This document shows positions 4,084 to 38,460 of a stretch of 64,000 nucleotides of DNA, one piece after another; the first letter of the stretch is position 1; each line of letters starts with the position of its first letter. The translations under genes and the position numbers were made by a program. The DNA lies in the NCBI RefSeq assembly GCF_964204645.1, contig NC_134026.1:15968150-16032149 (forward strand), given 5' to 3'. The notes below the pieces were generated by a model, which was not told the origin of the DNA, did no database searches, and saw only the letters and a program-made list of their open reading frames with translations. Source of the stretch: Tubulanus polymorphus (taxonomy: Eukaryota; Animalia; Nemertea).

Positions 4084-4125
4084 CTTAATATAAAAATCAA
4101 TTTTAATAACAAAATTATATAATAA

Positions 4126-4467
4126 ATGGAGAGTAAACAAGTACATAGGGAGAACAACAATCATTCTTAGATAGAATTAAAGTTACTACAAATGCTAAAT
4201 CAGTAGATTATAAATTTAAAAAGTTACCTTAGTTAACAATTCATAAAAAATATTTAATCACTAATATTGAAACAATTACTAATAAATATGGTAATAGATT
4301 AATAATTCATTTAGAATATGAAGGATTGAAAGGTAATAAATTCAGAACATATCTACCAGATTTCATAGATTATCTAGTGAAGATCTAGAAGAGTTATGTT
4401 CAGGTGCTTTCTATTTTATATCTAAAGGTAAGAATGAAAAGGGGCACCATGATATAGATTTCGAATA
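4126..4467 (+). pseudogene. Small Polinton-like ORF, possibly OB-fold/SSB-like
   Basis: Conceptual translation FKKLP*LTIHKKYLITNIETITNKYGNRLIIHLEYEG...FRTYLPD, with a stop and frameshifts; begins at TAAATG. Confidence 0.4.
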
Positions 4468-4601
4468 AAAAAGATATGTTATATAAATGGGTGAATTAAA
4501 AGAATATAGAATATTTGTTGATTCTAGAAGACTTACTAAACATAAATCTCATAATTTATTAATACAACTAGATAGAGAATGTAGAAATTGCGTTAATTTA
4601 A

Positions 4602-7600
4602 CGGTTCCTGAACTTAGCTGAAAAAGCTGAATCACTGAAACGCTGAAACGCTGAAATAAAAACGCTTATATTTCAGGGAATTTCCGAAAAACGCCGAAAT
4701 TTCAGGGAATTCCTGAAAAACGCAGAAATCGTGCTAGGTACCGACAATACACGTTTTGAAATATTTTCCGGGCCGGTGTCCGCTGCCGAGTCCTGAACCG
4801 TGTTTTAGTGTCTACCTTCGGTTACAGAGACATGCATGGACAGTATGTGTGGAGTATACTTCTAGAGGGCTACTTGGCAAAAACCGGCATCAGACCACAA
4901 TTAGGTTAGTAGCTCGAAGATGCGTAGGGCCGGACCCCAAAAATAGTACCTAGAGTGAAGAAGAGGTCCCCCATAAATGTTGCCATAATTTCTGCAAATG
5001 GGATAGGTAACGAATTTCGGTTATATGTATGAAATCCATTGATCCTGAGAGACAGATTGATGATGAAGTAAGGGATTCCCTGGACTTTTTTGCTTGGAGT
5101 AAGGGTACCAAACACGGTTGGGGATTCCCTTAGATATTTGGCCCGGATGAATTGGCATACCTGTACTGGGATACCCCTCCTTTCTAAAGGTTTGATTATT
5201 TCAAAAGTTAGGTTGGGTATGTGGGGCGAAAACCACTTCAGTGCGTAGCTAAGATGCTGGCCTATGAGCCATAAGCAGGATTTCCCCTGAATTTACGCGC
5301 TTATATATGAACTAAACTCTCGAATTTCTTGTTTTTACTATAGGATATAGAAGATTTTGGAATAGTGGTCTGAGCTCAACCGTAAAGTTTCCCAAGTCTC
5401 CGTTTCTACCTAACGCATGCGCATTAGTCAGTGCTGTGAATTGCTCCGAGAAATCGGCACATTGCGCATGCGGCACTACATGTGAACTGCATGTGAACTT
5501 TATTGACCAATAGTTGCCGTAGTTTCCATTAGGTTCGAATCCCGTAAATATATTGATCTTATTATATTTACGCTGTTCATCTTTAAGCGGCGTTATCAGG
5601 TTCGGAACCCGAAAATTACTCAAGCGTTACGACATTAACTTACTTTGATGATCAAAGTGTCGCTGGGTTATTGTTTGCCGAGTAAAAAAGTTACAGCATC
5701 CCGAATATGAAATAATGAACTTTGATAGCCCCAGGATTTACTTTTGAGTGCTATTAGGTTCGAATCCCGAATGCGTAGAAGAAAAATACATTCATCCTTT
5801 TTAATATACCGATATATATCTTAGATTTTCAGCTTATGACAAGACCACTTCAACACCTGTCATCCCCGAAAATACAAATGATCCTCTTAAGTGACCAAAC
5901 AAACTGTGCCTTCCCGCTGCGCAAAAGTTCACGCAGGTTCATTCCGTTATAGTTCTATGTTTCAGCGTTCTGACATGACCCAGTTTAGGAAAAAATACAC
6001 ATGTAGCGACGCATGCGCACGCGACCAATTTCTGGACTTCGAGGATTTCCCCAACACTTACTAATGCGCATGCGTTATGAACAGAGACTTGGAAACTTTA
6101 AGGTTTTTGCGGCCACTTGTTGGACAAATTAATTCGCTTGAAATCCGGATTTTTAATGCATACAGGCAGCATAATGAGGAAAACCCATTCACAAACCGTG
6201 CAAGCCAACTTAAACACTATGAGTATGCTCAATATTCCCTGCAAGACGCAAAATATCTTATTTGAACGTTCATGTATAAAACATGGAGCAACTTTTCTTT
6301 TGTCAACACGTTGATGGGCGACGGACTATGGTATTCTCTGAAGGAGGTAAATTAATTTTGACAGCTAGTTATATAAATGATGCTGCTTTTGGACAAAAGG
6401 GATCTAACTAAATTTCTTTTTAAATCACTGTGGAATGGAATGGAATGGATTGACGCCAACGGCATGCAGTAGGCCCCTACATATGGGTCATACTAATTAG
6501 CGTCAACCAATTAATCTAAATCGGGCAAACCATTCAACAACTATGAATAAGTTATTTGCTGTGGTGTGATAATAATTAGTTTTTTTTTTGAAGAAATGAC
6601 ATACCAACTATTAGAAAAATGTACCGATTCTTATTTTCAGACTACTACTGAATCTATAAAAGGAGGAGTCATAGACAAAGTTGATCTGCTTAGCTGGAGA
6701 CACTTCTTGTCAAGTACATCATCTTAAGTCCTGGGTGTTTTGTAAGTTTAATTTCAGTATTTATCTACTAAGTGCTGTTCCCTCGGACCTCAGTGCTTTC
6801 AAACTAGGCCGACCCCATATGCTATATAGCCCAGGGTGTATTAGCCACTATTCTTTTATTTCCTACTTAAATGCACCTTTTTCTATTTTTAGACTCAGAC
6901 TTAGAATGTGCAAATTTTTTGAGATACTGAGAAATCAGCTTGCACCAGTAAACTTCAACTGCGAAATTTGCAGCAGGATAGCTGAACGACACAATTTTTA
7001 AAAATAAAATGGCTATTCGAATGCTATTTCAATAATAACTTGATTCAACCGGAGAGAAATAAGTCAATTGCGGATGTACAGTACACCCACTTAATTCCCT
7101 GTTTCCTGGTACCAAATTTTTAGTCTTAAGCTAAGCGATATTCTAAGGTATGCTAGTGGATTTCATTAGAATATGAAGCAATGGAACCAGAATTCTAGCC
7201 CGAGTTAAGCGAACTATTGATTCTGATATAATGTAAGAACTGATTTCCTTTGTGTACTCTTACAAAATGTGTTATGTATTATTTCAAGCTGTAAAATAAT
7301 ATAGTTAGACAAACGTCCAATTATTGAATCTTTCTTGTTGACTCGTTTAATTTTGTGAGTTTAGAGCTCCTATAAGCCAGACAAATCAAAGCATGCAATA
7401 CATTGCAGATAGTAGTCTCCGGCAAGTCGAAAGAGAAAGTAAACCAGGTTTTACCCCGTACCCTACCCGGGAACAAAGACACTTAAAGACTCATTCCTCC
7501 TTGTAGAAATATGGCACCCAATCGTAGCAATGCTAAGTACAGTATACTATGACGGTTGAACCTTTATTTACGAATTTCAATGACACCGAAAATAGAATCA

Positions 7601-8100
7601 AGATAATCATAAGTTCCATGCTAGCACTTTATTTGGGTTATCAGGTTCAGCCTAACTGTACTTTCATTCAGCTACAACCTGTATGAGACTTGGCAATGAT
7701 AAGTTGCAAGAAATCACCAAACATAAGAAAAAATATTTTGAATTAATATTACTGTAATTAAGAATTTATTCAAATGAAGTGATAACTTCATTGTTAGATC
7801 GTACCGGTATATGCACATAAAACTGTGGCAAAAAACACATCCAACAATCCACGCAATCCACAATCGATCAAATCGAACATGAAGACGACCTTAAGGCATG
7901 TCTATGTAACCGAAGGTAGAGCATAAAACACGGTTCAGGACTCGTCAGCGGACACCGGCCCGGAAAACATTTCAAAACGTGTATTGTCGGTACCTAGCAC
8001 GATTTCAGCGTTTTTCGGGAATTCCCTGAAATTTCTGCGTTTTTATTTCAGCGTTTCAGCTTTTCAGTGTTTCAGCTTTTTCAGCGAAGTTCAGGAACCG
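4602..8100 (+). mobile_element. Non-autonomous Foldback/MULE-like DNA transposon, copy 1
   Basis: ~200-bp TIRs CGGTTCCTGAACTT(A/C)GCTGAAA... with internal GCTGAAA repeats; 9-bp TSD TTAATTTAA at 4593-4601 and 8101-8109; second copy at 28439-30798. Confidence 0.9.
4877..6110. mobile_element. Nested non-autonomous element with 9-bp TSD (MULE-like)
   Basis: Absent from copy 2 of the host element; 9-bp TIR GCAAAAACC/GGTTTTTGC; TSD GGC(T/C)ACTTG at 4868-4876 and 6111-6119. Confidence 0.85.
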
Positions 8101-9000
8101 TTAATTTAAAGTTAGTAAACATTAGTTAATGTAACTCTTTTTATAATGTAACGGATAAATCTATTGATCATAGATTGTTTATGGTTCAGGAAAAAATAAA
8201 AGGTATCATCTATATCTAAAACCAGGGTTATATAATTTCGGTACATTGTCACAAGAAATTAATAGAAAAAAGCCTGGCATAAATCAGGTAGTGATGCTGG
8301 GTTTAACATTAGATTTTTAAAAAGTGATAGTTCCAATAAAATAAGGATTAGGTTAACTCGTTGTGAAAAAAATCAATTTTTAGTTAAAAAACCTACAGCT
8401 TAACTGTTAGGAACTACACCAGATAAACTTTATTTAAATGTTGATGCAACACCAAACCTAATACCTTACACACATTTTTTTTATATTTATTGTAATTTAA
8501 TTGATCCTACAAAAACATTTAAAACAACTATAGATACAACTTGTAATTCTAGTATATTAAATATTTTACCTTTGAAGAATGTTGAATAGTTTGGAACACA
8601 AATAAATTAGTTGTAAAGAATGTAAAGAATGATTAACAATTTTTTGTAATAATGAATATGAATATAACAGTAGGACCGAGTATTTGTTTTTGGTTTGATT
8701 TTAAGCATGATAAAGCCATGAGAATTGAACTAAATGATTCGATTACTGATATCAAAAGTAAATCATTTAACAATGCATCAATGATTAATTAAGAAAATTA
8801 TTATATAGAAAAAGTAATTGATTTAATTAAAACATCATTAGAATATTATGAATTAAATGAAGATAAAATTATTGATGATATTAGAAATATATTATCTAAA
8901 ATATATGATAATCATAAAAGTAGTAATGAAATAAATGTTGAAATAATTATTAATAAGATAACTAAATATTTTGAAGAAGTAATTTTTTTCTATTGAATGA

Positions 9001-9222
9001 ATGAATGATAATAAGCGGATAATAAATGGATTATATAATGGAGCATTACTTTCAGTGGGAACGGTTGGTTATACAATGTTACTGGAGAAAGTATTTAAAT
9101 TGGGAAATATTAATATTGATAGATTTGATATAAATGATATTTTGAAATTAACGTTAGCAGTTACTTTATCTAGTTTAACAATTGATTATTTGGAAAAAAA
9201 CAAAAATATATCCCTCCTTTAA
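9001..9222 (+). CDS. Small two-helix hydrophobic ORF of the Polinton-like element
   Basis: Intact 73-aa ORF with two hydrophobic segments inside the AT-rich cluster. Confidence 0.5.
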   Translation: MNDNKRIINGLYNGALLSVGTVGYTMLLEKVFKLGNINIDRFDINDILKLTLAVTLSSLTIDYLEKNKNISLL

Positions 9223-9244
9223 ATGCATTATTTATGTTAAATAA

Positions 9245-9667
9245 ATGGTATCTGCAATTATAACTATTATGGGATCGGCAATTGTTAACGCTTTAGCATT
9301 TACTGGTGGTGGATATTTATCTAAGCATAATGATAAAAATGGTTCATTATCAGAACAAAAAAGACATAACTTATCATTAGAAAAATATAATAAAGCAGCA
9401 GAAGAATGCAGAGGAAAAAGACAAAATTATATGGATTATATTAATAAAGAATTATATAATCAAAATATTTCACATGTAGATTTTGAATCAGTTGATGTTG
9501 CTTTGAGTTTATATAACGCAGTAACAAATAAAGAAAATTTTCATCTTTATAAACCTACATTATCAGATTATTATACACCAAGTAATGAACTGAAGAAATA
9601 TGAAGTAATATGGATTTTAGGTGGTACGATTATTGTTATATTTGTAGCATATAAATTTACAAATTAA
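9245..9667 (+). CDS. Polinton-like membrane/coiled-coil protein (NALAF.G family)
   Basis: Intact 140-aa ORF: N-terminal hydrophobic GSAIVNALAFTGG, an EQKRHNLSLEKYNK coil and a C-terminal TM; starts at TAAATG. Confidence 0.55.
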   Translation: MVSAIITIMGSAIVNALAFTGGGYLSKHNDKNGSLSEQKRHNLSLEKYNKAAEECRGKRQNYMDYINKELYNQNISHVDFESVDVALSLYNAVTNKENFHLYKPTLSDYYTPSNELKKYEVIWILGGTIIVIFVAYKFTN

Positions 9668-9693
9668 TTATATATTATTTTCTTGTTAAATAA

Positions 9694-10121
9694 ATGGAAA
9701 AAGTTGATAATTTTGATATTATTCCTCATGATATCAATAAAACTAAATTAAAATTATATCTAGAAAAACAAATATTAGAATTTGGAAATGATTTGAAAAT
9801 TAAAAAGAAAAAATCTAAGATTATATATTATTCTTTTATTAGTGGGTCCATTACAATTAGTTCGGTGATAACATTTTTAGCAATATTCTCACCATTAACA
9901 CCTTAAGCTATATCAATTGGTGTGCTTGGATTATCATCAAGTGTATTAACTGGCATAAGCTCAAAATTGAATATAAAAAGTAATAAAGGAAAAATTAAAT
10001 CTTACATTAACATCTAAGAAATTAATACATTAAGAAAAACTTTAGCTTATATAATTAGTTTAAATGGTAATATTACAATTGAAGAACGAGATGAATTATT
10101 AAAAGAAGTAATTAATTATTA
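9694..10121 (+). pseudogene. Two-TM coiled-coil ORF of the Polinton-like element
   Basis: The ORF continues past the in-frame stop at 9904-9906 as AISIGVLGLSSSVLTGISSKLNIKS; starts at TAAATG. Confidence 0.45.
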
Positions 10122-10138
10122 ATCTTGTTATTAAATAA

Positions 10139-11240
10139 ATGGTAAATAATTTTCCAAAAGCTTTCCAATATAATAAATCAATTAAATATAATATTCCAGC
10201 AATAGATTTTAATTAAAATATTACTCATAGAAATGAAGTTTTAAATTCATTAATTTATTTAGATATTTATGTTACTGAAACTAATAATTTTAATGTAAAG
10301 ATGGAAAATATATTTCATGTATATTTAATTAATTTAAAAAAATTAAGAGAAGCAAAACAATGGCTAGTAAAATCTAATATGAAGTATTGGCAGAACCAAT
10401 TAAATTTTGCAGTTTATTGTGTAACAACAGGATGTGGTATAAGTTGGAACAATCAATTAAATAAACCAAGTCTACCATTAATCTTATCAGTTTTTAGCGT
10501 TCATACGTACTTTCAAATAAGATTTATATTAAATGAATAACAGTGTCCTTTACCAGGATCTAGATATTTTAAACAATTAGATGATAATATTAATTTATCA
10601 AAGTTTTATAAAGTTTGTAATGAATTTCATATAAATATAAATAATTCTGATTTTCGAACAAAAATTGGAACAATAAGATCACTTCCTTGTCCTGAAAATA
10701 TTTTACAATATTGCACACTTCCAATACCAGCTAACAGTATTTACAATATATATACTAATAAATTAGGTTATGGTTAAATAGAAAATATAAATTTTAAAAC
10801 ATTAAATTTCAATAAATCACCGAAATTTAATGATAATTCAAAACAATGGGTTCATTTTATTTTAGTGAAGGATTTACCAAGCCCGGTATACAAAGAATAA
10901 ATCAATCTATTAGAATATATGTTAATTCGCATATTAGAATCACAGGTTGAAACAAGATCCCCGATAATTGGGAATGATAATACTTCATTCGATACACAGA
11001 ATCAAAATTATTTAGATAAATCTCGTATAAGATTAAATTATTGTTTAGGTCCTAATTTGTTAATTATATCTAATGATTTACTATTAAAGATAGGAGATAT
11101 AATTGGGTATAATAATTTAATTACGACTGCAGGACTAAATAATTCATTTGGGTGAAATTATATAAATCAAAAAATTATCACTGCTCCAAAACTAATGGAT
11201 GGTGAAAAAAATTTAAAAAAACATACAATCAACAGAAACT
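10139..11240 (+). pseudogene. Conserved hypothetical Polinton-like gene (QLNFAV.C.T.GCG.S family)
   Basis: Broken frame joining track ORFs 10301-10540 and 10919-11155; starts at TAAATG 10136-10141. Confidence 0.5.
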
Positions 11241-11254
11241 AAAACAAAGAATAA

Positions 11255-12361: not shown

Positions 12362-12404
12362 AGGTAGGGACACACGAGCGTATTTTTTCGCACGATCGCG
12401 ACGA

Positions 12405-12690
12405 TTAAATTCCGCGGAATTCCGGATAATCAGAATTATTTTTCCAGAGATTTCCGGATCGTTCCAGAATAACATAGAATTGCTTTTCCAGAAATTTCCG
12501 GATCTCTCCAGAAAGCAGATCGCGTAACGGCACGGAGGAGGGGGGGGTTAACGCGGAATTCCGGAAAACCAGAATTATTTTTCCAGAAATTTCCGGATCT
12601 TTCCAGAAAGCTGATCGCGTAACGGCGCGAAGGGGGGAGGCACCGCGAACTTCCATAAAATCAGAATTATTTTTCCAGATATTTCCGAAT
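12405..12690. repeat. Degenerate tandem repeat (AGAATTATTTTTCCAGAAATTTCCGGATC units), probable element end
   Basis: About four degenerate copies of the unit, separated by GC-rich spacers. Confidence 0.7.
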
Positions 12691-17255: not shown

Positions 17256-17471
17256 TGTTATGGCTTGGACAGAAATGACCAGTTGAGATCCACAGCGAAA
17301 TATACCAAAGACTGAGCAGCAGAGTACAGACATTCGTATGCTTTATTCAGCAGTTTGAGAACTGAATTTGTGTTACAGTATTTCATATATATATACGACG
17401 TTACAGTAGATTAAACATTTTGGTTGAAGGAACACACCAGTATACCAATTGATAATTAGAGGGGTGTGACA
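17256..17471 (-). repeat. 3' LTR
   Basis: Differs from the 5' LTR by 3 substitutions and a 6-bp (TA)n expansion. Confidence 0.95.
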
Positions 17472-20400
17472 CGCCCCCACAAAAAGATAAAAATTACTTA
17501 TGGTAATTTTTACAAGAGCATAACAATCATGGACTACATAATTAATTTCACAACAATTATATATTCACAACACAATTAGTTCGCATTTTCCACAAGTTCA
17601 TATCTATTTATATCCGAGACAGCGCATCTGCAACCACGTTATGTTGAGCACTTATATGACGAATGTCTAGATCATAATCCTGTAGAATCAAACTGCATCT
17701 CATGAGCCGTCTGTTTTTGTTTTTCATACGATTCAAGAAAACAAGAGGATTATGATCTGTAAAAATAACTAATGAGTGATAATTAAACTAGAATATGCAT
17801 CAAAGTGTTCAATAGCTAACAATAACCCCAAACACTCTTTTTCGACAGTAGAATAGTTAAGCTAGGCAGCGACAAACTTTTTAGAAAAGTATGCGACGGG
17901 ATGTTCTATCCCAGAATCATCGTCTTGAGCTAACATTGCTCCCGTACCGAAGTCACTCGCGTCAACCACAATTTTGAACTGTTTCTGAAAATTTGGCGCT
18001 GACAGCACTGGGGCACTGATGAGTAAGAGTTTAACCATCTCAAATTCATTTTTTCAAGAGATTTGTCAAGTTACATGTTAAATGGGCGAAATTCTTGCAG
18101 AACTTTCTGTAGAACCCCGACATGCCTAAGAAACGCATGAGTGATTTCTAATCAGTAGGATGAGGAAATTCAGTAATCGCCCTTATTTTGGCATCCAAGA
18201 GATATTTCACAGTAGCTTTACCAAATTCAGACTTGTCGAGATTAACCGTGAGGTTCCCTTTGGTAAGATTGTCAAATAATGAGCGAATTTGGGTGATATG
18301 CTCATCCCAGGAATCTGAAAAAACAATAATATCATCTTGATACACAACAACACAAATTAAACCTCTGACTACTCTATTCATAAGCCTCTGAAATGTGGCT
18401 GCTGAATTCTTCATTCCAAATGGCATAACCTTATACTGGAAGAGACCATCGGGAGTACAAAAAGCAGAAATCAACTTGGCTCTCTCTGTTAGAGGTACCT
18501 GCCAATATCCCTTTGTGAGGTCGAATTTGCTAACGTATTTGGCACTGCCTATACGGTCGATCAGGTCTTCAATTCTTGGCATTGGATAATTATCCCTTTT
18601 GGTTACTCTATTAACTTGCGAAAATCCGTGACAAAACGCCATTTGTTGCCGGGTTTAGGTACTAAGATACATGGAGAACTCCAGTCGCTTTCACTGGGCT
18701 CTGCACAATCCATCTCTAATATCGAAATAACCTCTTTTTTCATTTGCTCGGCTTTAATGGGATTAAGTCGATACGGATTCTGCTTTATAGGCGGATTGTC
18801 ACCAATATCAACATCATGACATGCGAATGTTGTCAATCCTGGTTTATCTGTAAACAAGTTTTGATATTCATTAATGAGATCATGTAACTGTTTACCTTCC
18901 CTTTCCTCTAAATGACTTAATTTATCATCAATATTACTCAGAACCTCAGAATTTATGAAGTCTGGTTTCATCCCAGTTTCCTTTGAAAACTCAAATTCGT
19001 GATTGTCAATTGTTTCATTGACAGAAACAATTTCCGGTTCAAGGTAATGCTCATCGTTACGTTCATGGAACAATTTCAACATATTGATATGGCAGAGTTG
19101 AGTCGGCTTTCTCCTATCGGGAGTTTCAATTATATAATTCACATCACTCAACTTAGACTTAACCGTATATGGGCCATGCAACTTGGCATTTAATGCATTA
19201 CCTTGAACAGGAAACAAAACTAAAACTTTATCCCCGATCTTGAAACTTCGAAGACGAGCATTGCGGTCATACCAAGTTCTCATCTTTACTTGGGCACATT
19301 GTAAATGGTTGCGTGCAAATTCCCATGTATTATGCAACCATTCTCGCTCACATCGACACATTCAAGCAACTGATTGTATCCAGCCAGTTGCTCTCATGCG
19401 CCGAAAACTGCCTTGCAACTAGTTGTCTCCAATCGCTGTGTCGATGTGCGCTAGGCTTTAGAGGTCCCCTAACTTGGTGACCGAATACAAGTTCAAATGG
19501 ACTGAAGGATTCTTGTACTGAATCTCGGATGGCAAAAAGCAAGAAAGGAATTCCTTCGTCCCAATCTCTATGATTCTCGTTGCAGTAAGCTTTGAGCATG
19601 GGCTTAAAAGTCTGGTGGAATCTTTCTAACGCTCCCTGGCTTTCGGGATGATAAGCGGATGAAAGTTGTTGGTTTATACCTAATTGATACATGACTTGTT
19701 GAAAAAGTCCTGATACAAAATTGGAACCTTGATCACTCTGTATTGAGAGAGGAAGACCATACCTAGTAAAGAACTTCGTTAACTCTTGACAGGCAGTACG
19801 TGACTTGATATTGCTCACAGGTATCGCTTCTGGAAAACGTGTTGCTCTCGGTAATTAAATATTGTTTTCCTGAGCGACACTTGGGCAACGGACCAACACA
19901 GTCACATATCACCTCGGAGAAAGGTTCTGCAAAAGCCGGTATGGGCTTCAACGGAGCCACAGGAATAGTTTGATTTGGTTTTCCACCTTTCTGACAAATA
20001 TGGCATGTCTGGCAAAATTTACTGACACACTTTTTGATTCCTGGCCAGTAAAAGTGCTCAAGTATCTTATTATAAGTTTTACTTACTCCCAGATGTCCAC
20101 CTAACGGGGTCTCATGAGCCATCCGCAAGATTTCCGACCGATACTTTGACGGTACAACTATCTGATAGCTTAACTGCCAATGGTTATCAGCAGGGACGTC
20201 GATTGGGCGCCACTTGCGCATTAAAACGCCATTGTTAAAATAATAACCTATAGGAGAATCAGATAGATTAGAAATGTCAGGCACAGCCTAACCATACAAA
20301 TGTTGAATATCAGAGTCACGGGACTGTAATTCAACTAAATTTGAATGAGACTGAAGTTCTTTGCTAGGTATGATACAACCAGTCCCTTCAAATATTTTAT

Positions 20401-21180
20401 GCAAAAATGTGTTGTCTATGCAATATCCCGCATCATTACAAGAAACGTCTAAAAGAGAGTCTAATTTATCAAAACTCTTTTTATCATTATTTCTAGACAT
20501 TTGTCTGGTGACAACACAAGCAAGAAAAATTCCTGAATCATTAGTTTCAAAATTAGGTGTTTCTGAAACAATTGGGCTAACGTGGACCTTACCCCCTGCT
20601 AAATCATTTCCCAGCAATAAAGAAACACCTGAAACTGGTAATTTTGGGCGTACGCCTACTACAACTGGTCCACTAATAAAATCAGACTTCAAATGAATAA
20701 TATGTAATGGCACCTCAATTATCTCAGGGCCGACTCCTTGAAGGAGAACACTCTGGCCAGTATAGGTATTTTGTAAAATGGCAATGAATCTTCCAAAATG
20801 AGTGACTGGGAAGCCCCAGTGTCTCTGAGAACTTTAATACCTATCTGATCGGAGTTAGAATCTATGGACACCAAACCATCGGTGACGAATGGTTGAAAAG
20901 ACTGATTATACGACCGTTCAAGTTTGACTGAAGCAACGAGACCATTTTCCTCAGAGAGATTGGGGGTGTACCTTTCTTTCCTCTTGCCCTGCAATTTAAA
21001 ACAATTTGACATCAGATGACCAGTTTTCTTACAATAACGACAATGAATTGTTTTATGGTTACCGTTGCTACTATCTTGACGCTTATAAAAAGACGGTAAT
21101 ATGTTTGGTTTGGCCTTTTTATGAGTCAATGCATAATCGTCAGACAAGGTAGCAGCAACTGACAATTCAGTAACATTTCC

Positions 21181-21610
21181 CTCCCAATAGAAAAAGGGAG
21201 ATATAATCGTATACCCCGAGCAGACAGGCTGTGTACTAAGTGCGATATGGGAGTTGTATGTAATGAATTTCACTTTATATTTATTTGTCCTTTTTTCAAT
21301 GACCAGCGCAAGAAGTATGTCAATCAATATTATATAAACAATCGTACATCGCATAAATTTAAAGAGTTATTTTGTACAACTGGCGTCAAATTAAAAAACC
21401 TCATTTTATATATACAGAAATGTTTAAGATACCTTGTTACCTAAGTGCATAAATGCCAGATAATGCACTTGTTGCATACATATGCCCACCAATTGTATGT
21501 ACTGTCAATTTTCATTGTCTGTAATTTGTATAATGTATCTTGTAACTGGCTTTTGCTCTTCGCAAATTTGTAAATTTTGTGAGCAATAAATCTATCTATC
21601 TATCTATCTA
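21181..21610 (+). mobile_element. 5'-truncated LINE 3' end inserted in gag
   Basis: LPIEKGRYNRIPRADRLCTKCDMGVVCNEFHFIFICPFF (C-terminal CCHC of LINE ORF2), 3' UTR, AATAAA and (TATC)n tail. Confidence 0.85.
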
Positions 21611-21618
21611 AGAAAGTG

Positions 21619-22549
21619 GGGTCCTGCTAAAGTACGAAATTACGAAATATGGAGAGAAATTACGAAACACGAAACGAAATTACGAAACTACGAAATTACG
21701 AAATGGAAATTTTTTTGCCAGTAGTGCTGAAATACGAACCGAAATACGAAACGAAATGGTCACATTTCAAACACACGCCCATACTATGGTCAAAGCTCGT
21801 TATGACGCTACGGGACTGTAAAAATCTCGGCGGTGTAAATGATCTTTTGAAAGTACCATATTCAAGAATTTATTTTCTTAAACTGGAGGGTTTTAAGAAC
21901 GTCTACAATTAGTAGAAACTTATAGGATGTTCTCAAAAACAAATAATGAATACGCTGCGCCATTTCCACGAACTCAGACGCGGTAAAGCATACTGAAATG
22001 ATAGGCCCTACACATGGACTACATGACGATCTTTTTACCGCTTAACAGCGTAGTGACGAGCAATTTGAAAAAAATTCCGGCCGTGAATTTTCTTTTCGAA
22101 TCCGCATCCCTTGCAGAATCCAGACTTTTAAGCTCCTCAGCAGAGGAGAAACGAGGTATCAATTTTTTAGCCTAAACACTGCAGGATATATTTTAAGGCA
22201 CACTTTGTTCTCTAACCCGTAATTTATTAATCGCTACCTTCCAGTTGTATACGAGCATGCACAGATCATTCTCCCTGATGGCATCGCTAAACCCAGTCGC
22301 GGCACGGAACCCTGCCACACTAGACCGGGTGCGCATGTTTAAGCCAGCTCCACGAATCCGCTGCTATAGCGCAAAAAATTACAAAATTTTCGTTTCGTAT
22401 TTCATTTTATACTTTAGCAGGACCCGCGAAAAAATGACCATTTCGTTTCGTAGTTTAGCATTTCGTATAGTATTTCATTTCGTACTTTAGCATTTCGTAA
22501 TTTCGTTGCATATTTCTTAATTTCGTAGTTTCGTACTTTAGAAGTACCC
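21619..22549. mobile_element. Non-autonomous TIR element with 9-bp TSD (MULE-like) inserted in gag
   Basis: TIR GGGTCCTGCTAAAGTACGAAA versus reverse complement GGGTACTTCTAAAGTACGAAA; ACGAAAT subterminal repeats; TSD AAGAAAG(T/C)G at 21610-21618 and 22550-22558. Confidence 0.85.
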
Positions 22550-23599
22550 AAGAAAGCGCGAATTTCAGAACTAACACAATTTTTGAACTCTTCAATCAAG
22601 ATCATTTCTTTTAAGTTATCAAATTTTCGTTGATATTTCTCGATTCGCACCAACGTTTAAACAGTGTTTCTTTTCTGTGAGCGAATTCAACGTAAGTTTC
22701 ATTGTCGGTTTTCTATGTTTCACGGAATTTCTGACGATATGCCTCTGGAACAAGTTCGTATGCCTTAAGCAAAATTTCTTTAACGTTGTCGTTATTCTGA
22801 CAGTCATCTAGCGACAAGGAAGAATATACTTCCTGTGCTTTCCCAGTGAGTACACTTTGTAGCATCAATAACCAATGTGTTTTTGGCCAACTTAAACTTA
22901 TTGCTACTTTTTCGGGATGGTCAAAATACATAGCTGGGTTATCTTCAGTGAACTTCGGAACCAGGCGAATATTCTTGGCTGGATCAAATGTAGTAATACT
23001 TGGTATTGCTGTTCGATTCTCCAGCTCTAGTTGTCGCAAATGAAATTCCATTTCTTTTTTGTCAAATTCGTGTTTTCGCCGTCTTTCTCGGTCCTCGAAT
23101 TCCATGCGTTTCATTTCTAGCGCTATTCTAGCTGAATTCTCGGAGTCTTCCGAATAACTTTGAAACGACGGATTTAATTCATTTGAATCTTTACAACCAG
23201 TTTCTGAAACACTTCCATTATGACGTGCAGACAATATTTCATTTTGCAACAAGTAATGTTCTAGAACACTTTTAAGATCTGGCTTTCTTAAACTCGATTT
23301 AGCAGGAATTTCATATTTTCTTGAAAGCTCAAAAAGTTCTTGTTTTAACAGTACGTCGAATAACTCCCAATTCGGGTCAACAATGAATTTATCAACGTTT
23401 GTCGACGACATTCTGCTCACAGACGCAAACTCAATAAAGTTAACGGGGTATAGGAATAACAAATATACGAAAACGGTACACTACATAATGAGTTGCGTCA
23501 TATGGATTCCTAACTCTGGAGTTCTCGGAAAACGATTAATAACGCTGTTCAGTTATGTAATTACGCCGGATACATCTCTACAGTTCCTCAGCTTTCAAA

Positions 23600-23622: not shown

Positions 23623-23832
23623 TGTTATGGCTTGGACAGAAATGACCAGTTGAGATCGACAGCGAAATATACCAAAGACTGAGCAGCAGAGTACAGACAT
23701 TCGTATGCTTTATTCAGCAGTTTGAGAACTGCATTTGTGTTACAGTATTTCATATACGACGTTACGGTAGATTAAACATTTTGGTTGAAGGAACACACCA
23801 GTATACCAATTGATAATTAGAGGGGTGTGACA
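23623..23832 (-). repeat. 5' LTR
   Basis: Direct repeat of 17256-17471. Confidence 0.95.
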
Positions 23833-28438: not shown

Positions 28439-30798
28439 CGGTTCCTGAACTTCGCTGAAAAAGCTGAAACACTGAAAAGCTGAAACGCTGAAATTTCAGG
28501 GAATTTCCGAAAAACGCCGAAATTTCAGGGAATTCCCGAAAAACGCATAAATCGTGCTAGGTACCGACAATACACGTTTTGAAATGTTTTCCGGGCCGAT
28601 GTCCGCTGACGAGTCCTGAACCGTGTTTTATGCTCTACCTTCGGTTACAGAGACATGCCTTAAGGTCGTCGTCATGATCGACTTGATCGATTGCGGATTG
28701 CGTGGATTGTTAGATGTGTTTTTTGCCATAGTTTTATGTGCATATACCGGTACGATCTAACAATGAAGTTATCACTTCATTTGAATAAATTCTTAATCAC
28801 AGTAATATTAATTCACAATATTTTTTCTTATGTTTGGTGATTTCTTGCAACTTATCATTGCCAAGTCTCATACAGGTTGTAGCTGAATGAAAGTACAGTT
28901 AGGCTGAACCTGATAACCCAAATTAAGTGCTAGCATGGAACTAATGATTATTTTGATTCTATTTTCGGTGTCATTGAAATTCGTTAATAAAGGTTCAACC
29001 GTCATAGTATACTGTACTTAGCATTGCTACAATTGGGTGCCATATTTCTACAATTTCTACAAGGAGGAAGGAATCTTTAAGTGTCTTTGTTCCCGGGTAG
29101 GGTACGGGGTAAAACCTGGGTTACTTTCTCTTTCGACTTGCCGGAGACTACTATCTGCAATGTATTGCATGCTTTGATGTGTCTGGCCTATAGGAGTCGA
29201 ACGATATTTTTTCCCATACACAGGCTTGGCTTTAGTGTAGATGAAGGCTAGGCACTGCACATTGTGGATTGACTGGAACTCTTAACTCACAAAATTAAAC
29301 GAGTCAACAAGAAAGATCCAATAATTGGACATTTGTCTAACTATATTATTTAACAGCTTGAAATAATACATAACACATTCTGCAAGAGTATACAAAGGAA
29401 ATCAGTTCTTACATTATATCAGAATCAATAGTTCGCTTAACTCTGGCTAGAATTGTGGTTTCATTGCTTCATATTCTAATGAAATCCACTAGTATACCTT
29501 AGAATATCGCTTAGCTTAAGACTAAACATTTGGTACCAGGAAACAGGGAAGAAAAGTGGGTGTACTGTACATCCGCAATTGACTTATTTCTCTCTGGTTG
29601 AATCAAGTTATTATTGAAATAGCATTCGAATAGTCATTTTATTTTTAAAAATTGTGTCGTTCAGCTATCCTGCTGCAAATTTCGCAGTTGAAGTTTACTG
29701 GTGCCATCTGATTTCTCAGTATCTCAAAAAATTTGCACATTCTAAGCCTGAATCTAAAAATAGAAAAAGGTGCATTTTAGTTGGATATAAAAGAATAGTG
29801 GCTAATACACCCTGGACTATATAGCCCATGGGGTGGGCCTAGTTTGAAAGCACTGAGGTCCGAGAGAACAGCACTTAATAACAGTAAATAAATACTGAAA
29901 TTAAACTTACAAAACACCCAGTACTTGAGATGATGTACTTGACAAGAAGTGTCACCAGCTAAGCAAATCAACTTTGTCTATGACTCCTCCTTTTATAGAT
30001 TCAGTAGTAGTCTAAAAATAAGAATCGGTATATTTTTCTAACAGTTGGTATGTCATTTCTTCAAAAAAACTAATTATTATCACGCCACAGCAAATAAATT
30101 ATTCACAGTTGTTGAATGGTTAGCCCGATTTAGATTAATTGGTTGACGTTAACCAGTATGACCCATACGTAGGGGCCTACTGCATGCCATTAGCGTCAAT
30201 CCATTCCATTCCATTCCACAGTGAATTAAAAAGAAATTTAGTTAGATCCCTTTTGTCCAAAAGCTGCATCATTTATATAACTAGCTGTCAAATTTAATTT
30301 ACCTCCTTCAGAGAATACCATAGTGACATAGTCCGTCGCCCATCAACGTGTTGACAAAAGAAAAGTTGCTCCATGTTTTATACATGAACGGTCAAATAAG
30401 ATATTTTGCGTCTTGCAGGGAATATTGAGCATAGTGTTTAAGTTGGCTTGCACGGTTTGTGAATGGGTTTTCCTCATTATGCTGCCTGTATGCATTAAAA
30501 ATCCGGATTTCAAGCGAATTAATTTGTCCAACAAGTGGCCCTCTAGAAGTATACTCCACACATACTGTCCATGCATGTCTCTGTAACCGAAGGTAGAGAC
30601 TAAAACACGGTTCAGGACTCGGCAGCGGACACCGGCCCGGAAAATATTTCAAAACGTGTATTGTTGGTACCTAGCACGATTTCAGCGTTTTTCGGGAATT
30701 CCCTGAAATTTCGGCGTTTTTCGGAAATTCCCTGAAATTTCAGCGTTTTTATTTCAGCGTTTCAGTGATTCAGCTTTTTCAGCGAAGTTCAGGAACCG
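28439..30798 (-). mobile_element. Non-autonomous Foldback/MULE-like DNA transposon, copy 2
   Basis: Inverted copy of 4602-8100 lacking the 4877-6110 insert; TSD GTTGGAACAG at 28429-28438 and 30799-30808. Confidence 0.9.
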
Positions 30799-32837
30799 GT
30801 TGGAACAGATGGAATTGGGGTTTCACATTTTCTTTAAAGTTTTTTTTGCTTTTCTCGTATTGTTTGTTGGGGAATCATCTGCACCTTGAAGTGGAGTTTA
30901 TATTTCTTAAACTGCTCGCACTCTGGCATAATTACTAAGTTTATTGCACAAAAACATTATTAGTCCTTCCGTAACTGCCTTGGATAAATAAGATTAATTT
31001 CTTCCAATTATCTGAAATTTCTCTAATAGCAGGCGTGGTGAGATAAGTTGGTGGTAATAAACCATCTACAAGTAGAATTTTGATTCAGTTGACTAATGGA
31101 TGTTTTTTTTTCATTCAGCTCTGATGATGATCTGTTAATGGAGTCAATTCAGGTCAATTCTGACGACAACCATGGCGGGTAAATTTATCAAATACACCTG
31201 TTAACGTAACATACAAGCTATTACAGTGCTCAGGATTAATTTCTAGGCCAGATAGTACCCATTTTCTTCTTGGTCAAGAATCTTCGACCTCCTAGTTGAA
31301 GATCTAGTGACAAAACCACTCAAGCTTGTCTGCTTCCCAACAATTACAATCTTCATATGTAATGAAAAATGTCTCATTCCTTTCTTTAATGTCTCGTTTG
31401 ATTAATTTCTGAATAATTCCAGGCCCGATGAGATTCGTAATGCATCAAGCTCTCAAGATGAAACCTCCAGTTCATGGCAGTAAGTACATTCTAAAACAAT
31501 AATTGGAAAATAACTGAATACATTCATTGCCTTTCTATATGATGTGAACTGCGTATATACTCTGATTCCAGATACTTGTGGAATTACTTAAAATTAAATA
31601 AGTAGTGTACCAGTAGTTAATAATACATTTTATATAAAGCAAAATTCAGCAATTTTTCAACCGACTGAATGTCATTTGTTTTTCTATGCAGCTGCCATGG
31701 AAGCACAGTAGAACACGATTAATGTGCATCATAAATTCATCCAGTTTACGGGAAATCTTAATTAAAAGTCATTTTCTTGTATATTAATGAAAAAATGCAC
31801 TGCAAATATTGTCAGAATTAAGCGAGTTTGACTGTACATGTACTTAGAAAAATCAACCCACATTGTATTTACTTAAATGAAATACAATTCGTTATTTTTT
31901 TGGTAATTTCTGAGATAAAGACCACAACGATCCTGTCGAAGTGCTATCTTGTTTCCAAGCATTGGTAATGGAAGGCGGAATGCTTGACCTACTAGCCGAG
32001 AACGAGACTATTGCAGGTGAAACCTATCCAACTGTAGTCCCAAGAGACAAGCTCTACGAAGAGGCAATAAATGAAATCCTTAGCCAGGATTTTAATCCAA
32101 GATTTCCCCTGGATATAACTTTTATGGGGGAGGAGTGTTTGGACTTAGGTGGTCCAAGGAAGGAATTTCTAACCATTGTTTTGCGAGAGATAAAAGAAAG
32201 GCTCTTTGAAGAGAGCAATGACGGGTTGATTGTCAGGCAGGATGAACGTGCTGTCGAAAACAGGCATTTCTATGCTGCTGGCATTTTCATTAGTATGTTG
32301 GTTAAATTCTAATCTGTGTATGAGAAAATGATAAGCTTTGGTAATTAAAACAAGCTATTCAGGTTTAAGTGTAAGCAAGGCCTATTTCTTTTAGGTTTAT
32401 CGCTGATCCAAAATGGACCAGTTCCAAATTTTTTCAGCCCTGCCCTGGTGGATAGGATTTGCGATGGTAATGTAACATCTCCCCCTGACAAGCAATTGAG
32501 AGATGGATTGGACCAATTAGGCTTAGTCCAGGTAGGTAGACCCACAACCCCCCAAATTGAAAATGACCCCCAAAAATTTTTGACTTACCTATTCCAAGCT
32601 AAGGGTTAAAATTGTTTCTTTTTTCAGGAGATACATGAATTAGTATAAGTGTACACATAAATTTTTACATTGTAGTTGATGACTCATAAAGACAACTTGA
32701 AGCATTTGTTGTACAAAAAAACTCAGCAACCAATGAAATTCAAGAAATTGTTGGCATTGTTAAAACCGAGGTTTTCTGAACGAGGCAGCAACCGCCGAAT
32801 GAAAGAAGAAGCCATTTATCGACTATATTGTGACTAT

Positions 32838-34099
32838 TGATACACCGGTCACAATCCTCTCTTTAATCGTTATCTATTAAAATACTTGAGTAAGGCCCTG
32901 GCGAGAGAACGTGTCCGTGCACAAATCCGAATGAATAAACTGAAATACCGGATGATAATATTGAAGATAATATATTTTATTTACCTTGAACCTGAGAATG
33001 ATTTTCCTAATCCCTATTATATGAATCCCTATCGTTCCGAAGCTTCTCCTGTCCTGCTGTCGACACTCGTCTTACTAAGGTACAGATTCTCCCGATTGAC
33101 TGCTCTCTCAAGATGCGGGTCCCTTTTATAGAAAGAATCGGCATTCTTAAAATACCGACTCTCCCACTCGACTTTTGGCAAGGAGCAGCAACCTTACTGT
33201 CATGACTGTTTTGGTCATATAGAATTTGGCCTTAATGATTCGCTGATCTAAAATTATTTTCAAAACTGATTTGCTAAACTAACTTTTTCCTTCCAACCCT
33301 CCTGTCATGACGCGTTGTGATTTACTCACTCCTTGCTAGTCGTTGTTGAGAGAGCAGCTATTGTCTGTGAATTACCAACGAGCGCATACAGACAACAGAA
33401 ACTTCAGACAGCTAGTTTTAACATTTAACACAAATTAATTTTCTTAAAACTTTAGCGATTATAGAGACTTTGTTCTCATTTAACATCTAGGATATTCAAA
33501 TTAAATATCTTTTCAAAACTTTGTTTTCTTTTCTAATTACAGTACAAATTCATTGTTTCTTTTTTAATTATTATAATTAACTACGATTCGGAATACATTG
33601 TGATTGATTATCAATTCTTAAATTATTTGAAATACTAATACTAATTATTTTATCTACAATTTAACTAATTCTATTTTAATACAGGATAAGCAAAACAACC
33701 ACATCTTCCTAAACTTCCGGTTTTTCCTTTTACGGAAAGTAGCCGGGAATATCATCAAGTATCAGCGTGATCCCTTCACGAGCCTCATTATAAATACACT
33801 CCATTGTTCCGACCCAACCAAATATGGTTCCAACTATTTAAAAGTTTTATATAAAGATTTTCTGAATGTTTGCCAGATCTCACAGCAGAAGAACCGAGAA
33901 AGAATTGTTGTTTATAGACTGATTTATGGTTTGCGTTGGCAGATGAAAGCATCAAACAAGAACTTTCGTAATTCTTACTACTATTACGTTCTTGTCTGAC
34001 GGCTTTAACGTAACCCCCACGCGTACGGAAACAACATTAAGAACATTTCTAAATACTACGAAACATTTTCAGTTACTACGAAAATCTAGCTGTGGATCA
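32838..34099. mobile_element. Solo LTR (~1.26 kb) inserted in a HECT exon
   Basis: TGATACAC...GTGGATCA ends with 4-bp TSD CTAT at 32834-32837 and 34100-34103; removal restores YRLYCDYLKEVS. Confidence 0.8.
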
Positions 34100-34615
34100 C
34101 TATCTTAAAGAAGTATCAGGTAGATATTTAAAATTCTTCAAATTAATCGCGAAAGGTTTTTCAGAAGAAATTAAACTGCATATTGAATTCAATTCTCTGA
34201 GAATATATTGTGGCAATCTGCTTATTGCAGCTACATTTGCTCACCTCAAACTTTGGTTTTCAGCTGGACGTCGCAAGCCTGGAAAGATGTTGCGATTGGA
34301 GGACATTTTGAAATTCGTAACAGGATTGGAGGACGAAGCATTATTGGGTTATACCATACAACCCTTCATTATTTTTGTAGAAGACATTATGATTCCCCAG
34401 AGTAGCACCTGCATTAATCAGTTGATGTTACCCTTACAGTTCACAGATAAAGACAATACATATAATTTCTTTGATTATGCATTCTGTAATGAATATTTCG
34501 GTAAAACTTAGCCCACATGTCAGTTTTCAGATATCAGGCGAATTGTTTATTACTTTCGTATACAATTTCTTCATTATGTAGTGTATTACATGTATACATT
34601 CATTCACTTAATATT

Positions 34616-34953
34616 CTGCGGCGTAGCTACCGGTGCGGTTGGTTCGACATATGACGGACCAATAATTACCAAGGTGGTTATTCTGATTCGGACAAATTTG
34701 CATTAAAAAATTTGGAGGAGGGGTTAGGTTAGGATTCGATTTTTCTTGAAGTCACGGCCCCGTGAACTGCGTCGGGGCCAGAAATTATTTTTGTAAAATG
34801 GGCCTCAGATGTCCCATGAACCCCTTGAAATTTCAGAATTTTCAAAATTTCTAAACCGTTAGGGGCTTCGCACTTCGGTGCTCGCGACTGCTGGCTACGG
34901 CAGCAGCTGGCCTAGCATGTCGGACCAATAATTATTTGGTTGCTACACTGCTG
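34616..34953. mobile_element. hAT-like MITE remnant
   Basis: C(T)GCGGCGTAGC ... GCTACACTGCTG ends and an internal CGGACCAATAATTA direct repeat; TSD not clear. Confidence 0.4.
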
Positions 34954-35325
34954 ATATTTGCTTTGATATTTTTCTTCCCATGTGCTGGTAATGATATTCA
35001 CTATACAAAATAATGCCAGTTAGACACATAAAAAAATCCTGTTTCTCGGGTGGGGCAATCACCAAAATGGGTAGGTATGTAGGGATTTTTTTTCTTTTTA
35101 CAGGAAAAAAAGTTGTCTGAGCACAGCTGTACCATTTCCAGAATCAAATTGTTAAATCTGATGTAATAAGATGTTTTTATGATGTCTCGATATCAGTGCC
35201 GATATCACGATTTTATTAAAAAGAAAAAATAGGGTTTTCTTTTGGTGTGGCCTTACAGTAAAATTTCTTCTATAATCCAATGGATAATTTATGTACAAAA
35301 CATTTTAGAATGTGTATTTTTCTAT

Positions 35326-37167
35326 TCATAATTCAATTACACTGTACACATAATCTCTAGTTCTACAGTACAATGAGAAACCCCATGGATCATCATCAGA
35401 ATCTCTAAGTACACCCACTGGACCATTTAAATGTTCTAGATGCTCAGGTTTGAGCACTGGTGCAGTATCTGGAACATGTATTCCTACTTCATCATCCTCT
35501 TCTGGAATTGTTTCACTTTGATCGATCCCATATTGCTGAGCTTGACCCTGAAGTAACAATATTTCCTACATGAATGAATGTATTATAATGAAATTGTATA
35601 ATTGAATGCAGAATAAAATTACCAGCTCTCCAAAATCATCAAAGTATTCCTTTCCAATTACGCTATCCCGATCATAAGCAACATTTTGTAGACCTTGTAT
35701 GAACTGCAATGGAGAATTGTTACAGCTGTCCGTATCTTATGTTGATTGCACATTTCCACAAACATTTCCAGTGATCGGTTGATCCTAGGTAGGAAGACAT
35801 AGTGGAGGCAATACAAATCAACTTCACAACTTGGGTCGAGATAACCATGGGCTTCGAGATACAAAAATAGTGCATGACAACTGGATATCACCATCTCAAA
35901 CACATCACACCACAGCCGCTCTATACGGGAGTTGTGAACACTTCTTCCGCAGATAAAACTTCCCCTCTCTGGTCCTCTTAATCGATGCTGCTGCATGAAA
36001 CCTGCCACATCATAGTTCTCTACTCCCATATCAGCCCTGACTCGTGATGGTAACCCCCAAGTAGCAATTGCTTTTTGGAAACACTGACGTACAGTAGCTG
36101 ACCTGTTGTTATCATTGCATTGAAGATAAACGATGACACGACTATATCCTTCAATCCCATTATGGGTAACAAGTCGCCAACTGCAATTAATTTAATTGTG
36201 TTATGTGAATTAAGCTTACTACAACACAATTGGTCACCCTTCTCTAAAGTTTTCAATAATATCCAGATATTTTCAAGAACTATTGGCCTATAAAATGCTA
36301 AAATGGCATTACCGAATCAGCTTGTGATGACCATCGATGTGCCACGATGCCAGGGGGCTTTTCACATTATACACACGACGATGTATACGCTTTCTTAATT
36401 TCATTATAGATCTACCATGAGGATCTACTCTCCATCCACATTGATTCCCTTACACGTTAACGCGTAACCCTTTTTCCTTCAGATAAGAGATTCGCAGAAA
36501 TACTCCTCCGCCCTAATAAGTAACATCAAAATAGAAATTGGCTATTTTAACAAGTCCAAGAGACTGAATTCATGAAAAATCAACACTTTCTATACATGTA
36601 TACTTACCAGAATTTGGAAATGATTGAAGGTAGTATGTTACTCTTGTAGCGAGCCTTTTATGATAAATCGGATAGGGTGGCTTATGGTCTAAGAAAATGT
36701 TACTGACTAGAGCCGCAGAAGGTAGAGAATGCCCCTGTTCCCATCATTTATACAAGACAGGATAGGCCTAGTAGGCCAAATTGTCCACAAATATTGATTG
36801 TCATTGAATTTTAATCGGCCTAGCTAAAAAGAATTCAACTTGTTCTCTGGGTATATCAAACCGAGGTCGTCCAGTTCTACCATGCCCCTGGAACATCTGA
36901 TACTGACGTTGGTGTGAGTTCAAGACGCTTGCATCGTTATATCTCGCCTGTTTTGATTGCCATAATCTATATGATGCCGTATGCATCGGCGACATTCACA
37001 GCCATCGCTCCCAATTCTAGCCATTCTAACATATCGCGGTATATTCTGTCTAATTTGTAATTGACACCGTCGTTAATTACCCCACTTTCAATTGTATCAA
37101 GTATTTCCTTAAGTCTATTAAAGAAATGTCCTACAACATATATATTAATATCAATTGACGTTGACAT
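35326..37167 (-). pseudogene. IS3EU-like (integrase-core, rve-type) DDE transposase, spliced, disrupted
   Basis: GRPRFDI (HTH region); RRVYNVKSPLASWHIDGHHKLIR|WRLVTHNGIEGYSR...GLPSRVRADMGVEN...GRSVHNSRIERLWCDV...LHYVFLPRIN. D-D-E residues are present; stop at ~36968 and frameshift at ~35720. Confidence 0.8.
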
Positions 37168-37210
37168 TTTTCCCTATTTTAATACTAAACAGTATAGGGC
37201 TGCGACCTTG

Positions 37211-38460
37211 AGAGAGTAGGTGAAAATAATCGGAATCTTCGTAACCGCAATCTGTGGGAACCAGTCTATCTTTCGTCATCGTTGCTCGGGTGGATGTCTA
37301 TCGTTATAATGCTTCGCCGTTTGAAAGGGAACCAGTCTATCTTTGATCATCGTTCACGCAATGATCATCGTTTTTAGATTAACATCATCAAATGTGATCA
37401 AATAATATCGTTAAATGAAGTTTTCTTCATCAATGCATGTTCTATATCGTTTCATAACTAATATCATCGTTTTGTATGTTTTAGTATCATCGTTTCATAT
37501 CTTTTTATTATCGTTTCATATCTTTTTATTATCGTTTCATATCTTTTTATTATCGGTTTATATCTTTTTAGTCATCTTTCAACCTTTTTGTTATGTTTTG
37601 GTGGTTTTGGCCCGCCATAAAATGTCAAAAAAATCGAATAAGAATAGTATTGATATTGAAAAGACAATTGAAGATTTAGGCATTACTGATTATAAAGATA
37701 CAGTTGTTTCTAATTGTGCTCAAAATAATAATAATATTGATGTTGAATACTATTTTACATGTAAACACCATCTTGAGTTACTAATTGCTAGTGGTAAATG
37801 TAAGGAATTTATCGGAAAAATTATAATTTTTCAAGAATTAGATAATATGAAACCTGATAAAGTAATAAAACATTTAAAAATATATGAAGAAGCTAGATTA
37901 GCTAGAATAAACGATTCTATTTCGGATGGTTTTATAAAATGTTACTCTTAGTTATGTAACCGGGTAATACCAATTGATGATGAAAATAATTTATATACTG
38001 ATTTAAAAAATGACTACTTAGTTATGACAGAATTACAAAAATGGGTTGGATACGCTTCATTCCAATTAGGTGGAATAATGACATTAATTTCTACTGGAGT
38101 TATAACATTTTCTAATATCAAACCTATAGCATGTAAAGATAAAAGTAAATCAGAAGATATTGAATCAGAATAAAAATTATTAAAATAAATGAGTGATGAT
38201 ATTAAGAGGAAACCTAGATCTGAAAAACAAATTAAATGGGCTAGGGAATTAGGTAAAAGATCTTCAGAATTAAAAAGAGCTAAGAAAAAGAAATTAAGTG
38301 ATATAAATGAATCACAGAAATTATCTGATATTAATTCGAATGATTATCCATCTGATTCTTCTAATACTGGAAGAAATAATTACTTATATATTACAATTGG
38401 GTTAATCACAGTAATTATATTCTCTGGTGTAATATATAAATCTAAGTATAAATCTCTACC
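37211..38460 (+). mobile_element. Left end of a Polinton/Maverick-like element, truncated
   Basis: Starts AGAGAGTAG; 18-bp direct repeat and 21-bp tandem repeats; two AT-rich intronless ORFs (37622-38172 with stop, KHHLELLIASGKCKEFIGK; 38189 KPRSEKQIKWARELGKRS + TM) starting TAAAATG and TAAATG. Confidence 0.65.
37489..37572 (+). repeat. 4 x 21-bp tandem repeat ATCGTTTCATATCTTTTTATT
   Basis: Three perfect copies plus one with 3 mismatches. Confidence 0.92.

Follow-up and report, generated by a model that had tools for sequence, protein, structure and literature searches.

The window analysed here, a stretch of 64,000 nucleotides from the nemertean Tubulanus polymorphus (contig NC_134026.1, positions 15,968,150 to 16,032,149), holds remains of a Maverick/Polinton (Polintoviricetes) whose genes tend to start within the hexamer TAAATG. 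A preliminary description of this DNA had likened the motif to the late promoter of poxviruses. The likeness was borne out: it is near-universal in the intact relatives of the element, is found in one lineage only, and includes a T 10 nucleotides (nt) upstream of TAAAT. The same description had also treated positions 4115-38191 as one element, which has to be corrected. The window contains two separate, short fragments, at about 4060-11250 and about 37400-38450, and the roughly 26 kb between them are other DNA, which includes remnants of long terminal repeat (LTR), DDE and terminal inverted repeat (TIR) transposons. Both Polinton pieces form AT-rich islands of 22-32% GC.

One open reading frame (ORF) of the window copy, 140 amino acids (aa) long, is intact, and 24 homologs of it were obtained out of 33 candidates. 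An alignment of these homologs led to 155 confirmed stretches in metagenome contigs, and the best 80 of the 155 are the relatives referred to below. The contig L001 (11,483 bp, 20% GC) shares gene order and content with the window and is 70-80% identical to it in DNA. It also has the genes that match the gap between the two window pieces, namely a 485-aa gene and those for the major capsid protein, an rve integrase and an A32-like ATPase, and its deoxynucleoside kinase gene is located past the genes of the second piece. The features of the window copy are as follows, with position -13 counted from the ATG (10 nt upstream of TAAAT).

4123-4128, plus strand: TAAATG, initiator-like, at the start of a small gene, without T at -13.
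4126-4467, plus strand: broken homolog of L001 ORF 125-469, with in-frame stops and a frameshift (tblastn).
4484-4489, plus strand: TAAATG at the penton start; the upstream sequence is A-rich, not T-rich, as it is in L001.
4487-4601, plus strand: 5' part of the penton (minor capsid) gene, broken (tblastn to L001 565-1329).
4602-8100, no strand assigned: TIR transposon insertion with a 9-bp target duplication, which interrupts the penton gene and is foreign to the Polinton.
8110-8650, plus strand: 3' part of the penton gene, broken by frameshifts and stops; the end is approximate (tblastn).
8658-8996, plus strand: broken homolog of L001 ORF 1333-1713; the start has no TAA, the upstream T-run is retained (tblastn).
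8998-9213, plus strand: small membrane-type gene, 87% identical to its homolog L001 1733-1960; the TGAATG start is decayed, the T-run at -16 to -12 intact.
9242-9667, plus strand: TAAATG and the intact 140-aa ORF (9245-9667), 75% identical to L001 2014-2433; T at -13.
9691-10122, plus strand: TAAATG and a broken homolog of L001 2541-2975, with in-frame stops; T at -13.
10136-11245, plus strand: TAAATG and a broken, shortened homolog of the 442-aa L001 ORF 2996-4324, with in-frame stops; T at -13.
37618-38173, plus strand: TAAAATG and a broken homolog of L001 9410-10030, with one in-frame stop.
38186-38536, plus strand: TAAATG and ORF 38189-38536, homologous to L001 9951-10343 until about 38449; no T at -13.

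Most of these ORFs are thus disrupted by in-frame stops or frameshifts, and the penton gene holds a 3.5-kb transposon in addition; judged from its reading frames, the window copy is dead and cannot function. The TAAATG sites previously reported at 4123, 4484, 9242, 9691, 10136 and 38186 are all present, as are TAAAATG at 37618, TGAATG at 8998 and the four extended motifs, and the motif is missing, as had been claimed, from the host starts at 50165 and 56565. TAAATG is common in itself, being found at 89 of 2,604 ATGs window-wide and at 24 of 180 in the element pieces. The proposed enrichment over other ATGs in these AT-rich pieces nevertheless held: six of the eight tested starts have the motif, compared with 18 of 172 other ATGs (p=3e-5, a value that refers to the eight starts). 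A ninth homologous start, at 8658 (tblastn), does not, so that six of nine homology-defined starts are TAAATG. Two further sites were set aside: TAAATG at 37412 precedes a 178-aa ORF whose 5' part is a tandem repeat and was rejected as a start, and TAAATG at 9023 is out of frame with the conserved gene.

We then compared gene starts in the relatives. ORFs were called mechanically, and the 80 loci were grouped by similarity and GC content after the start contexts had been seen, a post hoc grouping that the trees back. The groups consist of five motif-bearing loci (L001-L005), 13 AT-rich sister loci (25-39% GC, several of them near-duplicates) and 62 GC-rich loci. L001-L004 are 71-85% alike, and a tree of 35 proteins that omitted most GC-rich loci joins them with the window in a clade at 100/100; L005 falls outside this clade on a long branch. 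In a capsid tree of 12 rows, L001 and L005 are joined at 91/94. The capsid of a further locus, L069, grouped at 100/100 with those of L001, L005 and L010; the one visible start of this divergent relative (L069:765) has, by eye, TAAATG and a T at -13. L005 (1-4939) has kept its TAAATG/TAAATATG starts at 44% GC, with short AT-rich tandem repeats upstream, and carries an endonuclease VII/HNH-like gene downstream of its capsid gene. Another Polinton contig, L082 (1-3992), is filed in a bacterial metagenome-assembled genome, where it is probably a contaminant. All three of its long ORFs begin with TAAA directly before ATG, the same as the vaccinia G8R intermediate initiator TAAAAT (PMC12722222).

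In L001-L005, TAA directly precedes the ATG at 32 of 36 ORF starts; among the 219 short spurious ORFs that the calling rule also produced, 16 have it. The remaining four starts are an internal ATG of a split integrase, an antisense ORF and the variants TAAATAATG and TAAATATG. Since L001-L004 are so alike, the 32 starts are not independent; L001 alone, however, has the motif at 15 of 17 starts (null: 11 of 78), and these starts belong to different genes and hence are not inherited copies of one site. By contrast, TAAATG was found at one of 43 starts in the AT-rich sister Polintons and at two of 214 in the GC-rich loci. In L005, with its 44% GC, three of four starts are TAAATG and the fourth is TAAATATG. 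In the intact relatives, the motif is present, together with a T-run that peaks 10 nt upstream of TAAAT, at the genes for capsid, penton, ATPase and integrase and at accessory genes; it is also kept at starts that fall within the preceding coding sequence and at the divergent deoxynucleoside kinase gene. When the starts were aligned on their ATG, T reached 72, 78, 94 and 88% at positions -15 to -12. T occupies -13 at 30 of the 32 starts. Of the TAAATG hexamers in these loci that do not start a gene, 16 of 46 have it (p=6.5e-8), and in the sister elements the figure is 37%. The vaccinia rule for this T was read alongside the base-frequency table, not before it, and the comparison of 30/32 with 16/46 was run afterwards.

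These are the two parts of a poxvirus late promoter. In the late promoters of vaccinia, the 10th nucleotide upstream of TAAAT is a conserved T, flanked by less conserved Ts, and the intermediate promoters are described without that conserved T (PMC11980589). TAAAT is the initiation site and also the site of the polymerase slippage that gives 5' poly(A) heads, and it is conserved in the deepest chordopoxvirus (PMC4542343, PMC5294985). The family shares with the vaccinia and chordopoxvirus promoters both the placement of TAAAT over the ATG and, 10 nt further upstream, a T within a T-run (PMC11980589, PMC5294985, PMC4542343). It differs from them in that the element is not a poxvirus and that the putative promoters stand before genes of every class, no early-type genes having been seen. 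The penton promoter (window 4464-4489; L001:541-567) is A-rich instead of T-rich and resembles the intermediate class.

Several genes that are absent from the window fragments are present in L001. A model of its major capsid protein (predicted local distance difference test score, pLDDT, 58) matches the double-jelly-roll capsids of PBCV-1, an iridovirus and virophages (E 1e-11), and Pfam recognises an A32-like packaging ATPase (PF04665, E 5e-11) and an rve integrase (PF00665, E 1.5e-10) with a chromodomain. The integrase gene (L001:7141-8469) is interrupted by one in-frame stop after 125 codons. The penton, L001 565-1329, gave a model of pLDDT 93, built on an alignment of 77 of 143 matches, with the mavirus penton as top match (E 5e-11). 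The deoxynucleoside kinase (L001:10340-10981, minus strand; PF01712, E 2e-31) has the full motif at its start; the Atlas clusters closest to it mix viral with bacterial members, so that no donor can be named. A polymerase candidate comes from L005, a fragment 42% identical to a 930-aa protein of L009 and containing a YxDTD motif, which we take as a family-B polymerase signature. The fragment had no polymerase match in Pfam, PHROGs, NCBIfam or the PDB, and is probably, from its sequence, a family-B polymerase. For the ORF at L001 125-469 (window 4126-4467), a possible single-stranded DNA-binding protein is a lead only (Atlas 0.87, PF17427 on 44% of cluster members). The ORF at L001 1333-1713 is confined to motif-bearing loci, has five close homologs and shows no family match and no tie to a polymerase subunit. 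From the look of the proteins, we presume that the capsid belongs to Maverick-Polinton group 2; the capsid fold matches are generic, and the element is not filed as a virophage proper (Virophaviricetes). Pfam revealed no maturation protease among 16 ORFs of the incomplete L001 contig, and no RNA polymerase, capping or transcription-factor family among the 16 L001 and two L005 ORFs, both contigs lacking the element ends. Neither terminal inverted repeats nor a target-site duplication of the element were identified in the window or in L001-L005.

Around the Polinton pieces, the window holds host genes and other repeats. The host gene at 93-2900 is spliced and has VWA and EGF-like exons, its GT..AG joints being visible in sequencing run X3; a Core-2/I-branching glycosyltransferase gene (PF02485) lies at 50165-50863, and a host gene for a small unannotated membrane protein at 55966-56565. 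The non-coding TIR transposon at 4602-8100 has a second copy at 28439-30798, 93-100% alike and in opposite orientation, each with its 9-bp target duplication. A decayed LTR retrotransposon on the minus strand (18148-23411) contains a reverse transcriptase (PF00078) and, as judged by eye, gag- and integrase-like ORFs, between direct repeats at 17256-17471 and 23623-23832. Tandem repeats occur at 60494-60748 (AT-rich, period about 90) and at 62338-62769 (a 153-bp array).

With a fair degree of confidence, we propose that active members of the family rely for their transcription on a co-infecting cytoplasmic virus of poxvirus type and its late RNA polymerase, the window preserving dead fragments of that family. 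Virophages carry the late promoter motifs of their helpers, and integrated virophages remain silent (PMC6428243, PMC10945749). Dependence on a pox-type helper would be the most economical inference, and the family is perhaps best read as an integrating satellite of such a virus, mavirus-like in its operation; this virus might be a poxvirus in the strict sense or a different member of the class with the same promoter. In a helper-infected cell, element DNA would reach the helper's factory, where the helper late polymerase would transcribe it into near-leaderless mRNAs with 5' poly(A) heads. For replication and packaging the element would use a family-B polymerase and a capsid of its own, and the rve integrase would insert it into the host genome. 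There it would stay silent until the next helper infection, like mavirus with Cafeteria roenbergensis virus (CroV).

A number of observations weigh against this proposal. No helper was found: 14 IMG/VR contigs that carry the extended motif are not rich in TAAATG (28-50% GC, selected for the motif; 0-2 TAAATG starts each). Five scans of viral contigs with family proteins or alignments gave no relative. A single match to the deoxynucleoside kinase in viral contigs (37% identical) was discarded as a helper candidate, as TAA precedes the ATG at one of 17 starts in its contig. No poxvirus of non-insect invertebrates surfaced in the literature covered, including the available text of PMC11097642 and 10.1101/2025.04.19.649669, and the main text of 10.1101/2024.03.23.586382 does not discuss egovirus promoters. 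In the decayed window copy, T at -13 is retained at only five of nine starts, two of which, 8658 and 9001, have a decayed TAA. Among the sister starts (13 loci and L082), 24 of 47 read T(A)3-8 before the ATG, and TAAATG could conceivably have arisen by drift from an A-rich translation context. The sister elements control for composition, yet they are not proven to be helper-free, because such starts resemble TAAAAT, the vaccinia intermediate initiator (PMC12722222). AATAAA is not depleted in the coding DNA of the motif-bearing or the sister group; since neither is depleted, this comparison did not discriminate between cytoplasmic and nuclear transcription, and depletion of ATTAAA and of splice donors likewise did not separate the two groups. 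A depletion of TTTTTNT (10 found, 22 expected) was not accepted as a sign of early terminators, A-runs and T-runs being depleted alike, and reflects a general avoidance of homopolymer runs.

Copy abundance bears on the same question. Three sequencing runs of one organism, none recorded as RNA, were compared as contigs. Run X1 is DNA-like, one contig spanning 1-3662 unspliced at depth 30. Over the element it has 4,444 contigs on 12 kb, with a summed depth of about 20,000-109,000 over element bins, which is not a copy number. The host thus appears to contain many divergent copies of the family, a state that would be harder to reach if every round needed a helper. At loose ends in X1, 12 contigs show a T-run start in which an A-run replaces TAAATG, again at odds with the proposal, and five show a T-run with TAAATG. 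In run X3, spliced host-gene joints occur along with low-depth contigs on the element; as contigs show neither expression level nor 5' ends, this run was not used as evidence.

Other mechanisms could place TAAATG at gene starts. Nuclear transcription by host RNA polymerase II, which we regard as unlikely, would make the motif a compact fusion of host signals (an upstream poly(A) signal, a U-rich element and an A-rich translation context) or the relic of an ancestral promoter. The overlap of AATAAA with 15 of the 32 starts, the A-runs before ATG in the sister elements, the apparent multi-copy state of the family and the frequency of T-runs after stop codons in AT-rich DNA all fit this reading. 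However, AATAAA does not overlap 17 of the 32 starts, the full motif also stands before the divergent deoxynucleoside kinase gene, which no gene precedes on its strand, and the T peak is fixed to the ATG whereas stop-to-start gaps span -80 to 710. As for a relic, 94% retention would be unexpected across relatives that are 71-85% alike and in a member with 44% GC. A simpler origin, the coupling of the TAA stop of one gene to the ATG of the next in a compact genome, is very improbable and was largely refuted by the junctions of L001: one of 14 has a gap of 0 and two read TAA-TAA-ATG, but the other 11 have a gap of 16-710 nt or an 80-nt overlap. Moreover, none of the six window sites doubles as the stop of the upstream gene, and coupling leaves the T at -13 unexplained. 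Chance in very AT-rich DNA, which the 24 TAAATG among 180 ATGs of the element pieces might suggest, can practically be dismissed: the counts in the relatives refute it, with 89% observed against a null of 7-14%, one of 43 starts in the AT-rich sisters, a motif kept at 44% GC in L005, and 0-2 starts in each of the 14 viral contigs picked for the motif.

It is also improbable, more so than transcription by the host, that the element is autonomous in the cytoplasm with a self-encoded poxvirus-like RNA polymerase, in the manner of the yeast pGKL linear plasmids, which belong to the protein-primed family-B polymerase (pPolB) lineage and have no capsid or integrase. Late transcription requires several polymerase subunits and factors, a gene set too large for a genome of 15-20 kb, and none of the 16 L001 and two L005 ORFs matched the corresponding Pfam families. 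Capture of a single subunit would suit a satellite better than an autonomous element. In favour of autonomy, and against a need for a helper, L001 (11.5 kb) lacks its ends and no complete element was seen. The pGKL elements do share with our family a poxvirus-like TAAAN initiator, and they form 5' poly(A) leaders; yet they have their own RNA polymerase, and their early-type upstream element is related to the poxvirus early promoter, not to the late T element (PMC6211774).

Several known systems come close to this family. With the Mavericks/Polintons described as 'adintoviruses' (PMC8502044; framework in 10.64898/2026.06.19.733378) it has in common the double-jelly-roll capsid, the penton, the A32-like ATPase and the rve integrase with chromodomain, as well as the probable family-B polymerase and integration in an animal genome. 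Unlike them, it has poxvirus-late-type promoters at nearly every gene and, in L001, a deoxynucleoside kinase; the word 'promoter' is absent from the main text of both papers. Mavirus and the endogenous mavirus-like elements (EMALEs) of Cafeteria also combine an rve integrase, a family-B polymerase and a silent provirus with the helper's late motif at their genes, and the type of motif differs between their lineages (PMC10945749, PMC6428243). Our family differs in its animal host, in the Polinton-type capsid lineage and in a motif of poxvirus instead of mimivirid type. Occlusion bodies of entomopoxviruses contain the Polinton-like viruses AHEV_PLV1/2, CBEV_PLV1 and Ca_PLV1, proposed as poxvirus hyperparasites; two of them are divergent members of Maverick-Polinton capsid group 2 (PMC11296320). 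These are of Polinton type like our family. They come from insect occlusion bodies, and those described have a tyrosine recombinase or no integrase, whereas our family is a germline Maverick with an rve integrase and without a known helper; the main text of PMC11296320 contains 'promoter', 'motif' and 'TAAAT' zero times. We found no paper on poxvirus-type promoters in Polintons, Mavericks or adintoviruses in main texts that included few subscription papers, and supplements may hold promoter notes. Polinton-like viruses associated with entomopoxviruses are thus already published, and poxvirus-late-type promoters in Polintons are apparently new.

To our knowledge, animal Mavericks have no known virion or trigger. 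A strict two-part poxvirus late promoter would give a concrete and testable account of expression for one lineage, namely to await a pox-type infection. Transcription by such a helper predicts a poxvirus-type virus in hosts for which none is described in the literature we found, and TAAATG with a T at -13 offers a simple genome-wide screen to sort helper-dependent Polintons from others. More tentatively, and with rather less confidence than in helper transcription itself, this germline lineage of animal Polintons may be an endogenous virophage whose helper, a poxvirus-type virus infecting non-insect invertebrates, is still to be discovered. The promoters of the lineage would be a fossil record of that virus, and its intact copies would act as an antiviral system, inherited and set off by the helper, much as mavirus does in Cafeteria. 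The virophage lifestyle would then extend to germline elements of animals.

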